NCBI GenBank assembly: GCA_963797095.1
Contig: CAWCNY010000003.1
Span: forward strand, 672,001-736,000
Source: an uncultured Chloroflexia bacterium
Lineage (GTDB): Bacteria > Chloroflexota > Chloroflexia > QHBQ01 > JADMIH01
Direction: 5' to 3'
DNA: 64,000 bases
Shown in pieces: positions 14,292 through 32,055 of the stretch. The position numbers and the translations under genes are program-made. Positions within the stretch are counted from its first letter, which is position 1; every line of letters begins with the position of its first letter. The notes below the pieces were generated by a model. It was not told where the DNA came from. It did no database searches and was given only the letters and a program-made list of their open reading frames with translations.

Positions 14292-14400
14292 CTTCCGGCA
14301 ACAGATAACCTTGAAAGCCATGCCCATTTATGGGCTGTGGTTCGGCTGATAAAAGGTTGCTCATAGTCTCTCCTTTGTCGCATAATTGAAGTAACGTGGA

Positions 14401-14611
14401 AGCTAACCAATGCTACACGCCACTATTGCCTTCGGGTAGTAGTCCGCACTTTGATAATGCAAGATGTTAGCGGGTTGTTGCACGAAACCCTTGTGCAGCG
14501 TAAAAGCATCTTAGGTGTCTCCTATAGTGCAACCTTAATGGCATATGGATGAGTATGCATCGGTGCAAAACCGTAGAAGCTGCTGGCGTTTACGCCATGC
14601 GGAGTCATCAC
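14401..14611 (+). ncRNA. Structured ORF-less element, copy A; resembles an IS200/IS605 (TnpB) right end or reRNA
   Basis: Homologous to 29847-30064; C-UUCG-G hairpin, covarying stems, terminal GTAGAAGC-hairpin(TTTA loop)-TCAC. Confidence 0.6.
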
Positions 14612-15312
14612 CACTCCACCCAATCACCCTCGGGGTGTACCCACACCGAAGTGGCAGGCGGCCCCGCGAACATCTTTTGCACACCTTCCATGAACCCCGG
14701 CTGAGAATAGTACTCGCCCATTCCCGCCGGGCTGATCCACATATCCACAGCGAAAAGCTCCAGCGCCTGCGGAGAATCCGGTGAGGCCATCCGCACATAT
14801 ACTTCGTGCGAAATATCGCCCGCCCTCCTCGCCTTGTTCACCTCACCGCTCACAATCGCGTTGTGAGCCTCCCGCGCATCCTCAATCGAGCGCACCGTCC
14901 CGCGCACCACCGCAACGATTCGCTCGTTCTGGCCGTATGGCGCCGGCAGGTGGTAACTGAGAAAGCCCGGAGCGGGTGCCCACACTACAGGGTCGCGCTT
15001 GCTGAAGATCTGCCCGGCCTGCTCCTGCACTGTCGGGTTGGCGAAGAACTGCCCAAGCCCATCCATGCTGTTCCACACGTCCAGGATAAGGAACTCGCCC
15101 GGCTCGGACCCAGGCCAACCCGCCGGTACATACACCATGTGGCTCAGGTCGCCTAGCGCCTGTGCAGCCGCCACATTTTGGGGCGCTCCCGCCGTCGAGT
15201 TATGCACCTGGCGGGCGTCCTCCAGCGTCGCGGGGGCAAGCTCGCCGCGAATCGTAAGGAGATACCACGGTAAGTTCTGCGGCCCGTTTGCCGTTTCCTG
15301 AGAGTTGTCCAT
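14608..15312 (-). CDS. Hypothetical protein made of two homologous halves (possible dimeric alpha-beta barrel)
   Basis: Repeats RGxxx.xEDARxxHN...GDxSHxVYV...DxW; AAGGAG RBS. Confidence 0.75.
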   Translation of the reverse strand: MDNSQETANGPQNLPWYLLTIRGELAPATLEDARQVHNSTAGAPQNVAAAQALGDLSHMVYVPAGWPGSEPGEFLILDVWNSMDGLGQFFANPTVQEQAGQIFSKRDPVVWAPAPGFLSYHLPAPYGQNERIVAVVRGTVRSIEDAREAHNAIVSGEVNKARRAGDISHEVYVRMASPDSPQALELFAVDMWISPAGMGEYYSQPGFMEGVQKMFAGPPATSVWVHPEGDWVEW

Positions 15313-28848: not shown

Positions 28849-29733
28849 CTAGCCGTTCACTATCTCTCCACCGTTCACGTGGGTCACCTGCCCCGTAACA
28901 TAAGACGAATCGTCCTATGCCAGGTAAACGTAAGCAGGGGCAACTTCCGCAGGCTCGCCCGCCCGCTTGAGAGGCACATCCGAGCCGAACTTGGCAACCT
29001 CATCGGGCGGCGAGGTAGAGGGAATGAGAGGGGTCCATATAGGGCCAGGCGCTACCGCGTTCACCCGAATACCTTTATCAGTCAGTTGCTCCGAAAGTGA
29101 GCGGGTAAAAGCAACGATGGCCCCTTTGGTCGGCGAGTAATCAAGCAGACCCGGACTCCCTCGATACGCAGTCACTGAGGTTGTGTTGACTATAGCGCTC
29201 CCCTCATGAAGATGAGGCATGGCGGCTTTGGTCATTTGAAACATCGCGAATACGTTAGTGCGAAAGGTTCGCTCCAATTGCTCCGAAGTGATCTCCTCAA
29301 TTTTCTTCTTGGGATGCTGCTCGGCGGCGTTGTTCACAAGGATGTCCAGTCTGCCAAGCTCTTTGACGGCGCGCTCAACCGCCTCTCTGCAATGCCCTTC
29401 ATCACCGATGTCTCCCCGGATCAAAAGGCACTTGCGCCCCTCCTGCTCGACATCCCCCGCCGTGTCGCGAGCATCCTTATCTTCATTCAGATAACAGATT
29501 GCCACATCCGCGCCTTCCTTCGCGAAAGCAATGGCGACCGCGCGGCCTATGCCGCTGTCGCCCCCTGTGATGATGGCAACCTTCCCCTGTAGCTTACCGC
29601 TGCCCAGGTAATCGCGTTTCTCAGACTTCGGCCTGGGGGTCATCTCGCTTTCCACGCCGGGCTGCCGTACCTGATGTTGCGGCGGGCGCTGCGGCTGGCT
29701 CTCCCCCTGCTTCTTGCTCTTATCAGCTTTCAT
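28849..29733 (-). pseudogene. General-stress SDR oxidoreductase (YdaD/YghA-like) with an in-frame TAG near the 3' end
   Basis: TGGDSGIG, NNAA, YSPTK; after TAG at 28915-28917 the frame continues DDSSYVTGQVTHVNGGEIVNG to TAG at 28849. Confidence 0.85.
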
Positions 29734-29846
29734 GGCGGCTAAGACCGCCTGCTTTAGCTGTGGGGATACAGCCGCCCTGCGTAGCCAGTCTGATTGAAAG
29801 TCTCTGCATAAAGTCCTCCAAAGGGGTATTATGTGTGTGACGGGTC

Positions 29847-30064
29847 AGCTAACCATTGCTACTCGCTACTACTGCCTTCGGGCCGTAGTCGCACTTTGAC
29901 AGTAGGATAATGTAGTGGGTTTCAGCACCAAAATCTCGTGTTGAGTAAAACATATCGAGTGTCTCTCATGGTGCAAACCAATGGGCAGGAAGTGCCCAAC
30001 GTAGAGATGTTCGTAAGAATACCGAAGCGTAGAAGCCCCTGAGTTTACTCATGGGGTATTTCAC
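29847..30064 (+). ncRNA. Structured ORF-less element, copy B; resembles an IS200/IS605 (TnpB) right end or reRNA
   Basis: Homologous to 14401-14611; ends CGTAGAAGCCCCTGAG-TTTA-CTCATGGGGTATTTCAC. Confidence 0.65.
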
Positions 30065-30082
30065 GAATAATTCCTCTGATGG

Positions 30083-30120
30083 CGGACGAGGGACGATAGA
30101 TTAGTATCGTCCCTCGTCCG
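30083..30120. terminator. Hairpin downstream of the 30125-31591 gene
   Basis: CGGACGAGGGACGATA-GATTAG-TATCGTCCCTCGTCCG. Confidence 0.65.
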
Positions 30121-30124
30121 TTCC

Positions 30125-31591
30125 CTACCTCACCAACTGTGTGGCGACAGGATTGGGCGTATCCGTGGCCGTAGGCGGCTCCATATTCACCTCTGTAGCC
30201 GTGGCCGTGGCCGTAGGCGGCTCCATATTCACCTCTGTAGCCGTGGCCGTAGCTGTTTCCATGTTCACCTCGGTCTCTGTAGGCGGAGGTGTCAGTTCGT
30301 TCGCGCTGGTGGGTGTAGCCGTCGCGGTCTCCGGCGTGCCTGTAGCCTCAACGGTTTCGGTAGTCTCAGGCGTGCCTGTAGCGCCGGGGGTGCTCGGAAG
30401 CGCCGTGCCCGTTGGCGCGGGCATAGGCGGCGTAGGAGTGGTGATAACATCGGCTGGGCAGTAGCCGTAGTTGCGGTAACGCCAGTCGAAGTAGTGCTGG
30501 CCGATGTTAGCCATCTCAACCTGGAACCCTGCCTGGTTGCTCGGCACATAAGTAAGTGCGCGCCGCTCGTAAGCCTGGATCATGACATCAGTTAGCTGGC
30601 CCTGGATGGTGGCCTTCGCCCAGTAAGGCTCGCTGATCGGGTAGCCCGAAGCGTAGTTCCAGGGATTGATCAGTTGCTCTGTAACGATCTGGCCCTGGTC
30701 GTTCTTGACAGGCCCTGACGAGTTCAAGAAGTCCCAGAACACCTGCGGTATGTTGTGCTGGGTGGCAGGCTCGAAGTGGACGAGCTTCACGCCTGGCACA
30801 TTGGCCTTGGATGGGTCGTTGCCCACATTGCCAACCCGGTCTATCGTATCCGTGGCACTCTGGCCCGTGCGATCAGGCGCGTCATGGTCGCCTGCCTGCG
30901 TATTCGACACGCCCTGGAAAGCGTAGTAAGTAGGGGCGGTCGTGTCGCCGAAGTCGCCCGACATCGGGATACAGGCCGGGCGATATTTGACAAAGTCGTT
31001 GTCGCCGACCTGGATGTACCCGCTGATAAGTTCCACCGTCAGCAGGCCGTTCGTAACAAAGAAGGACTGGCTGCGGTCGCCTTGTGGGTTATTAATCTCC
31101 ATCCGGCTCTTGTCGAAATACTGGACAAGACGCTGGCTGTCTGCGCCCTGGTTGTACTGCTCAAGCAAGCCGGGGGTGTTAGGTCCTGGACCCCAGAACC
31201 ATGTGCGTGCAATGCGGCCCTCGGCCACCAGCGAGTCTGTGCGATCCCATACTCTCCTGAAAGCAGAATCGGCGAATGGGAAATCACCCGTGCCGCCTGG
31301 CTCGTATACCGCGGATGGAACGGAAACGGTGGGCACCTCGCGCGTATTCGTAGCGACCATTGTGCTCGTAACTGTAGCCGTACCGGTCATTATAGACGTC
31401 TCGCTTGCCATCGGCGTGAGAGTCTCCGTAATCATAGCCGTGCTGCCTGCTGTGCTCGTTTCAGCCTGGGTTACTGTTACCCCGGGCGTGGGCGTTTGCG
31501 CAAGGGCTGCCGCGCCAAACACCAGCGCAGCCGCTCCGAAAGTGGTTGCGGCTGCAAGCCACTTCCTGGCTCTGTGTTGATTGTCGATCAT
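30125..31591 (-). CDS. Secreted Thr/Pro-rich cell-surface protein with a Chloroflexota-type domain and C-terminal repeats
   Basis: Signal peptide ending ALA; RTWFWGP, QYFDKSRMEI, VTNGLL, GYPISEPYW, QAYERR; TATATEVNMEPP repeats. Confidence 0.8.
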   Translation of the reverse strand: MIDNQHRARKWLAAATTFGAAALVFGAAALAQTPTPGVTVTQAETSTAGSTAMITETLTPMASETSIMTGTATVTSTMVATNTREVPTVSVPSAVYEPGGTGDFPFADSAFRRVWDRTDSLVAEGRIARTWFWGPGPNTPGLLEQYNQGADSQRLVQYFDKSRMEINNPQGDRSQSFFVTNGLLTVELISGYIQVGDNDFVKYRPACIPMSGDFGDTTAPTYYAFQGVSNTQAGDHDAPDRTGQSATDTIDRVGNVGNDPSKANVPGVKLVHFEPATQHNIPQVFWDFLNSSGPVKNDQGQIVTEQLINPWNYASGYPISEPYWAKATIQGQLTDVMIQAYERRALTYVPSNQAGFQVEMANIGQHYFDWRYRNYGYCPADVITTPTPPMPAPTGTALPSTPGATGTPETTETVEATGTPETATATPTSANELTPPPTETEVNMETATATATEVNMEPPTATATATEVNMEPPTATDTPNPVATQLVR

Positions 31592-31737: not shown

Positions 31738-31949
31738 CGTGCAGGGGTGCTATGCTCAGCACCACTACAACAAAAACCCAAGGATACGCAATTTGCCGTA
31801 GCAAAAATAACAGCCCGAATTACAATAGAATGGCTAAAGCCATGCCCATTCATGGGCTGTGGTCAGGCGCGAATAAGGTGGGTCAAGTGTGTGGTTGCTC
31901 ATATTCGCGTTTGCACAGTGTGTACTATCTCTAGTCCTGACAGCATAAC

Positions 31950-31968
31950 AGCACATATGTGCTATAAT
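31950..31968 (+). promoter_or_regulatory. LexA-like palindrome overlapping an extended -10
   Basis: AGCACATATGTGCT overlapping TGcTATAAT. Confidence 0.45.
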
Positions 31969-32055
31969 GGACGTCTGCCGGACTACACTCTCCAGCGTAA
32001 TGAGTAATGAGTAATGAGTGCCATGAGTGCTTCGCAGGCGTGCAATCTGCTTCAA

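Follow-up and report, generated by a model that had tools for sequence, protein, structure and literature searches.

Copies A and B, two structured repeats of the stretch analysed here, are very probably PATE-/MITE-like, gene-less derivatives of IS200/IS605 transposons that carry a stand-alone omega-RNA-like scaffold and would be maintained by TnpA and TnpB acting in trans (PATE being a term that comes from haloarchaea). The window, that is, the whole stretch of 64,000 nucleotides under analysis, corresponds to C3:672001-736000 of a 6.0-Mb genome in 8 contigs (G000), referred to below as the resident genome. The initial annotation had proposed a non-autonomous element or a stand-alone guide-RNA scaffold, and both halves of that proposal hold, considering that the element is multicopy, is bounded by TTAC and TCAC, shares its left end with a resident tnpA+tnpB element and has a scaffold related to the 3' ends of tnpB genes. 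Four resident tnpB genes are also matched at their 3' ends by our covariance model of the scaffold, and for this reason the elements are best described as PATE-like with an omega-RNA-like scaffold. Read from left to right, each comprises a hairpin near its left end, a short spacer in which a -10-type block lies, a scaffold of ~215 nt, a right-end hairpin and the tetranucleotide TCAC. The features are listed below by their positions in the window.

14299..14302, +, tetranucleotide CAAC at the target/TAM position of copy A (TTAC in most other copies)
14303..14611, +, copy A, complete gene-less IS200/IS605-type element (PATE-like), delimited by BLAST against the resident genome
14317..14341, +, left-end subterminal hairpin CCA-T-GCCCA TTTA TGGGC-TG-TGG (DNA fold)
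14381..14386, +, -10-like hexamer CATAAT, a degenerate form of the TGnTAnAnT block of the family
14394..14611, +, omega-RNA-like scaffold of copy A, taking in the flagged 14401-14611
14422-14443, +, scaffold hairpin of copy A
14476-14483/14493-14500, +, covarying stem of the copy A scaffold
14580-14602, +, right-end hairpin CTGC-TGGCG-TTTA-CGCCA-T-GCGG (DNA fold)
14608-14611, +, terminal TCAC of copy A, the scaffold end
14612..14627, +, right flank, would-be 16-nt guide of copy A, overlapping the 3' end of the minus-strand ORF 14608..15312
29720..29724, +, TTATC at the target/TAM position of copy B (B-type motif)
29725..30064, +, copy B, gene-less element of a sister subfamily, older and diverged (scaffold 29847-30064, TCAC end)
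30065..30080, +, right flank, would-be guide of copy B, with a single occurrence in the genome

Extent, Copies and Probable Mobility of Element A

The initial annotation had delimited copy A at 14401-14611, and this sequence proved to be real; the full unit is larger, however, since identity between copies extends from 14301 to 14611, so that the repeat measures 309-311 bp (14301/14303-14611) and the flagged part makes up its right two thirds. The BLAST identity begins at 14301 rather than 14303 because the AC of the target is common to the copies. Upstream of 14401, the same unit holds a left-end hairpin and a promoter-like block. Its description as ORF-less was upheld, given that no TnpA or TnpB coding remnant was found beyond a C-terminal tail motif and that the overlapping ORFs are short and attributable to chance only; in tblastn comparisons of 8 resident TnpBs with 9 members of the family, the match was confined to that tail motif of 11-12 residues. 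Terminal inverted repeats are absent, and subterminal imperfect hairpins are present at both ends, on the same strand.

Eight full A-type copies at 99-100% identity were found by BLAST in the resident genome, together with two left-truncated copies at 100% identity (266 and 218 bp), one further copy at 86% identity to the A type (A2), and shorter or diverged relatives that form several subfamilies, copy B belonging to one of them. The right boundary of all A-type copies is exactly TCAC, after which the flanks are unrelated. On the left, TTAC directly precedes six of the eight full copies (copy A has CAAC and one other copy GTAC), and both truncated copies are joined directly to it. The same tetranucleotide lies 5' of five copies in relatives for which the left end could be placed, one of them from an unpublished genome (G016), and 5' of the resident tnpA+tnpB element; it is also the left motif of IS608. 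Comparison by eye of the left and right flanks of the copies revealed no target-site duplication. These alignments place copy A among 10 copies, 99-100% identical, that stem from a recent burst, and the occurrence of such copies in unrelated contexts implies recent movement. The element is real and appears to have been mobile recently.

The search for empty sites in relatives, which had been suggested as a check, gave none within the genus by which the exact target could have been confirmed. DNA spanning copy A and one truncated copy was searched in 25-26 genus genomes: the relatives aligned only to the ABC-transporter gene, stopping ~40-60 nt before its end and so short of the insertion point, or had only paralogues at 67-74% identity.

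The two truncated copies (L034, C5:636573-636790, and L027, C3:348102-348367) lack the left-end hairpin and yet abut TTAC, and one of them begins exactly at the predicted RNA start, between two ABC permease genes. They may have arisen through aberrant TnpA cleavage or internal excision, leaving immobile scaffold genes. A mini-derivative of ~100 bp (L042, C6:415024-415123) joins one half of the left-end hairpin to the final ~70 nt of the scaffold, apparently through a deletion at a short TATG repeat.

Structure and Covariation of the Scaffold

Copies A (14401-14611) and B (29847-30064) align block for block, as had been noticed, and the blocks common to both are AGCTAACC, GCACTTTGA, GGGTT, GTAAAA, GTGTCTC, GTGCAA, CGTAGAAGC and TCAC. 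The three stems named in the initial annotation are all real and covarying in an RNAalifold consensus of seven subfamily members from the resident genome, which, at a mean column identity of 64%, comprises 46 pairs, 25 of them changed on both sides. The ACTATTGCC/GGTAGTAGT hairpin is present in this consensus; the GTTGCAC/GTGCAGC stem corresponds to helix 38-45/75-82, with 7 of 8 pairs compensatory, and the TGGCG-TTTA-CGCCA stem to helix 283-291/296-305, with 7 of 9. A broader alignment of 24 sequences from the resident genome and four relatives, fitted to the model (4 of the 24 rows coming from the unpublished genome), had 93.6% of its cells paired and 27 of 35 pairs changed on both sides; in 500 shuffles these values were never attained, and the slid controls were 24-44% paired. 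A U-G pair that is invariant in 22 of 22 sequences identifies the plus strand as the folding strand.

A pseudoknot between GGGTT and AACCC, which had been considered possible, did not survive the comparison, as its loop sequence occurs in A and is absent from B and from the other members. An alternative GGGU/ACCU pairing was 81% paired, with zero compensatory changes. A putative extra hairpin at 14542-14559 lies in a stretch that the model leaves unaligned. The pairs A/A2 and B/B2 (B2 being the partner of copy B) have their scaffolds conserved at 86-87%, as against 76% for the left part. No Rfam family reached its gathering score in the window, so a match to an unrelated family was not found; relaxed searches gave chance-level results only, with E values up to 10 around copy A and up to 1 in 7 related loci.

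Promoter and Expression

An extended -10 type motif, TGnTAnAnT, lies at fixed distances 5' of the scaffold in 17 of 29 family members (3 of the 17 from the unpublished genome) as compared with 2 of 58 control stretches. Copies A and B fail the strict pattern and carry degenerate versions of it (TCGCATAAT in A and GGGTATTAT in B). A simple sigma-70 scan of the two copies returned no promoter, and a simple terminator scan found nothing relevant. From the family motif we infer transcription at the level of the family, with less confidence for copies A and B themselves; the RNA of copy A would start near 14394.

With regard to expression, an index search of RNA libraries found no run that holds the copy A locus, only 0.05 of the words being shared. 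In four of four metatranscriptome runs compared, contigs span 14531-14612, differ from it at few positions and then pass into other flanks. RNA libraries thus contain related scaffolds, each with a flank of its own, which is weak support for transcription; these contigs are relatives' copies, strandless and without RNA ends, and DNA carry-over could account for them. One contig, noted here without any weight being placed on it, comprises the scaffold, 13 nt of another flank and then what we take to be sequencing-adapter sequence.

These data bear on the view that the elements are mobile but carry, as their scaffold, a dead relic left behind by a deleted tnpB element, devoid of a functional RNA, its conservation reflecting recent common descent together with single-strand DNA signals for TnpA. 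The missing consensus promoter in copies A and B and the lack of transcripts from the resident genome's copies among the metatranscriptome contigs would agree with a relic, as would two properties of the DNA itself: left- and right-end hairpins are DNA signals in the IS200/IS605 family (IS608), and G-T wobble pairs can form in DNA too. Nevertheless, internal helices at a distance from the ends show compensatory changes between subfamilies that are only 64-76% identical, and to our knowledge the TnpA of characterised IS200/IS605 elements needs subterminal hairpins only. Considering also that the scaffold is conserved above the left part in two independent pairs and that the extended -10 block keeps a fixed spacing in 17 of 29 members, we regard a relic as unlikely.

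Kinship with Resident tnpA and tnpB Genes

The IS200/IS605-like right end recognised at the outset stands, with its subterminal hairpin at 14580-14602 and the TCAC end, and both end hairpins of copy A fold as single-stranded DNA. Loci of tnpA and tnpB with the same ends, whose search had been proposed, were found in the resident genome. Over 76 nt, the left block of copy A (14301-14376) shares 83% identity with the left end of a tnpA+tnpB element at C3:1052789-1054451, whose left-end hairpin differs from that of copy A by compensatory changes (GCCGC/GCGGC) and whose right end has the same build, namely TAGAAGC, a hairpin with a TTTA loop and ...GTCAC. A second, left-truncated copy of this element lies on C1, and a 28-nt match to the left-end hairpin, at 96%, occurs beside another tnpB at C1:~23440. 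Ends of this kind are what characterises IS200/IS605 transposons and the derivatives of them that have lost their genes. Altogether, 8 matches to the TnpB zinc-ribbon domain and 4 matches to Y1_Tnp (PF01797) without stops were obtained. A TnpB of 357 aa is encoded by two identical intact copies; it carries all three Pfam TnpB domains, matches the solved ISDra2 TnpB (8h1j, 8exa) over residues 5-354 with an E value of 1e-45, and has, by eye, all three RuvC acidic residues in place.

The covariance model (R1) has 167 positions and was built from a trimmed alignment of gene-less copies only, with the 5' leader and the first hairpin outside it. A genome search with such a model had been suggested, and it did reveal further copies: there are 23 places in the resident genome, consisting of 18 gene-less copies (E 1e-10 to 1e-36), four tnpB 3' ends and one weak extra. 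The four tnpB-linked homologues represent half of the eight resident tnpB genes, with E values of 1e-5 to 7e-4 genome-wide and of 2e-8 to 1e-6 in further alignments to the model. At the type-2 resident tnpB genes (C6, C8 and C5), the model matched the right-end hairpin only (E 0.01-0.2). Overall, 16 tnpB-linked right ends were matched: named Chloroflexota genomes contributed 5, relatives 7 and the resident genome 4. What they have in common with the gene-less copies is the outer stem plus the 3' 80-120 nt (...ATCGG..CCGTAGAAGC, a hairpin, GAGT..TCAC), and an inner stem module of ~55 nt is missing from all 16; these matches reached 21-46 bits as compared with 130-181 bits for complete stand-alone A- and B-type copies. 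Any compatibility of the scaffold with a resident TnpB is therefore putative, deduced from a right-end homology that is partial and limited to the 3' 80-120 nt and the outer stem.

The CCGTAGAAGC block encodes the TnpB tail ...QSVEA... in two resident genes, and copy B reads ...SVEAPEFTHG... at this block. Inspection by eye shows a likeness between the 5' part of the scaffold (CTTTGA...AGATGTT.GC) and the final codons of the gene for the 357-aa TnpB, which would fit an origin of the elements by deletion of most of tnpB.

Strong full-length matches to the model were found in 4 of 24 other genus genomes. At E values up to 1e-5, matches occurred in 16 of 151 sampled genomes of the class and 4 of 151 sampled genomes of the phylum, both counts including the resident genome. 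Among 25 loci from relatives, the 7 with weak matches all lie at a tnpB 3' end, and 17 of the other 18 have no tnpB within the fetched 1.5 kb, the remaining one (L049) having only an N-terminal TnpB fragment 1.2 kb downstream. One of 19 further loci (L085) has an N-terminal TnpB fragment upstream. Relatives of the resident TnpB at 32-59% identity belong to named Chloroflexota (Ktedonobacteria, 'uncultured Chloroflexia') and a few other bacteria; the model, applied to 26 of 34 loci of such relatives, gave 5 matches, all partial (21-31 bits).

A GGAG...ATG motif on the minus strand, at 14361-14376 in copy A and 29808-29823 in copy B, reads outward through the left end; A-type and B-type elements and the tnpA+tnpB element all retain it, and it overlaps the -35 position of the predicted promoter.

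Right Flanks and Gene Context

Directly 3' of TCAC, where the scaffold ends, lies the flank, in the position that a guide would occupy. All 18 right flanks compared have a single occurrence in the genome and look like insertion-site flanks. A search of the genome for second targets found none at 0 mismatches and a single 1-mismatch match for one flank; matches adjacent to TTAC or TTAT were absent for all 18 with up to 2 mismatches. A domesticated, TldR-like targeting role was considered as well and is opposed by this absence of second targets.

The flank of copy A had been reported as antisense to the 3' end of the neighbouring gene. The overlap is real, and nothing was found that would lend it a biological meaning, 18 of 18 flanks being unique insertion-site sequence. 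The stop codon TGA of ORF 14608..15312 is the complement of TCA in the terminal TCAC of copy A, and, on our reading of the sequence, the frame would continue for ~20 codons if the element were removed. Since the ORF stops inside TCAC and its frame would otherwise be ~20 codons longer, the antisense relation is most simply read as a by-product of the landing site. At three listed copies, a convergent ORF is ended by the TCAC of the element, a number in keeping with chance, given that TGA is encountered at once in one of every three reading frames. For genome annotation, the elements account for ~20 structured intergenic repeats in the resident genome and for the fact that some neighbouring ORFs end exactly at TCAC.

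Copy A is flanked by two converging genes, namely an ABC transporter and a 234-aa ORF without a Pfam match. A cis-regulatory leader, riboswitch or terminator serving the neighbouring genes could be imagined for a structured, intergenic sequence, and copy B is followed by a strong hairpin at 30084-30119. Such a role is nonetheless hardly credible, given that near-identical copies occur beside unrelated genes in both orientations, one of them inside an ABC permease operon, that copy A sits where two genes converge, and that no Rfam match was obtained.

A further alternative treats the scaffold as an RNA gene that has left the TnpB system, either as an antisense or regulatory small RNA or as the partner of another protein, and that merely rides on IS200/IS605 ends. 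In its favour, the extra covarying module of ~55 nt is absent from all 16 matched tnpB-linked right ends, strong matches to the model never adjoin a full tnpB in the loci inspected, and read-through from copy A would be antisense to the 3' end of its neighbour. However, the flanks are unrelated and unique, their contexts are varied, the 3' module beside the flank is the most TnpB-like part of the scaffold, and intact TnpB genes with related right ends reside in the same genome; the published precedent, in both sources cited below, is moreover use by TnpB in trans. We consider such an independent RNA gene quite improbable, even more so than a relic.

Proposed Cycle, Precedents and Significance

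In the reading that we favour, that of PATE-like elements served in trans, a Y1 transposase TnpA encoded elsewhere in the genome would move the element as single-stranded DNA, inserting it, with no target duplication, immediately after TTAC in the A type and after TTAT(C/T) in the B type. The scaffold of ~215 nt, which is partly homologous to the omega RNA region at the 3' end of the resident TnpB elements, would be transcribed from the internal promoter past TCAC, so that ~16 nt of flank would serve as the guide. The resident ISDra2-like TnpB of 357 aa would load this RNA in trans and cut the empty joint of TTAC and flank after excision, and the element would then be copied back, in line with the homing/retention model put forward in a preprint (Meers et al., 2023; bioRxiv 10.1101/2023.03.14.532601).

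The same preprint describes PATE-like gene-less IS200/IS605 elements in Geobacillus stearothermophilus and states that PATEs often encode omega RNAs, whose use by TnpB would necessarily be in trans (Meers et al., 2023). Stand-alone omega RNAs that are mobilised without an effector or transposase have also been reported to work in trans with compatible effectors (Altae-Tran, 2021, via PMC10691335). The kind of element found here is thus already described in print (Meers et al., 2023; Altae-Tran, 2021, via PMC10691335). The Geobacillus elements, as the preprint portrays them, are likewise gene-less and multicopy, have end hairpins in common with tnpA/tnpB elements of the same genome and a fixed short motif before the insertion, and bear a scaffold that abuts the right end, with the flank as would-be guide. 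With respect to that portrayal, the present elements differ in being apparently from Chloroflexota, in their motif (TTAC or TTAT(C/T)), in their extra covarying stem module and own -10-type block, in forming two subfamilies with different end hairpins and one scaffold core, and in being known from sequence alone. The stand-alone omega RNAs of the OMEGA account (PMC10691335) resemble them in being mobilised loci without effector or transposase in genomes that also hold effector loci; those RNAs are described there as working in trans, whereas for ours a fit to TnpB is deduced from partial right-end homology. Elements of the ISDra2/IS608 type, for their part, have a right end made of a hairpin followed by a short tetranucleotide, and a full-length homologue of their TnpB is resident here; they carry TnpB, whereas copies A and B have neither tnpA nor tnpB.

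A bolder reading, which we hold only tentatively and think more doubtful than not, is that the gene-less elements form a self-sustaining RNA-only lineage and are not simply cut-down tnpB transposons. In favour of this reading, their scaffold includes the covarying ~55-nt module that none of the 16 matched tnpB-linked right ends possesses and, in most members, is preceded by an extended -10 promoter block of its own. One scaffold core is combined with two sets of ends and target motifs (TTAC in the A type and TTAT in the B type). If this were true, a lineage of omega RNAs would evolve and swap its ends independently of any nuclease gene, parasitising TnpA and TnpB in trans and perhaps out-competing the guide RNA of the nuclease itself. 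Under the preferred interpretation as PATE-like elements, the results add a family of stand-alone TnpB-type guide-RNA elements, clearly delimited, apparently active in recent times and seemingly from a Chloroflexota lineage, and provide for further use a covariance model, well-defined target motifs (TTAC and TTAT) and, from the same genome, candidate enzymes as partners. They support, without changing it, the published view that transposase, nuclease and guide RNA of IS200/IS605 are modular and able to act in trans.

Copy B and Other Elements of the Window

Copy B belongs to a B-type group of four in the resident genome, made up of copy B itself, its partner B2 at C2:1331513-1331848 (82% identity) and two nearly identical copies on C2 and C4. 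TTAT followed by C or T lies 5' of all four, and also 5' of one copy (L057) from the unpublished genome. Copy B scores 144 bits with the covariance model and has a -10-like TATTAT at 29828-29833; its left-end hairpin contains mismatches in the DNA fold, and copy B is old and probably immobile. The right-end hairpin of the B type is 81% identical over 32 nt to that of the second TnpB type (C6:~34000).

Twenty nucleotides past the TCAC of copy B, a perfect 15-bp hairpin (GGACGAGGGACGATA / TATCGTCCCTCGTCC) spans 30084-30119; situated before the convergent ORF 30125..31591, it could act as a two-sided transcript stop. This ORF, of 488 aa and without a Pfam match, contains near-identical direct repeats of ~45 nt at 30150-30300 on the minus strand. 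On the other side of copy B, the minus-strand short-chain dehydrogenase ORF (28915..29733) has its start codon within the left end of the element (29725-29733), and a short minus-strand ORF with a GGAGGA ribosome-site motif in copy B ends just past the dehydrogenase start, in another frame. The insertion of copy B may have replaced the first codons of the dehydrogenase gene. Provision of a start codon for the leftward gene was rejected as a feature of the B/B2 family, for the neighbour of B2 starts in another frame and the proteins are unrelated.

A third, decayed element is found at 31825-31975 on the plus strand, where a left end adjoins TTAC on its 3' side and a TGCTATAAT block comes next. 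The covariance model finds no scaffold after it. Its left-end hairpin block is 96% identical to copy A over 28 nt, and three TAATGAG heptamers follow at about 32000-32020.
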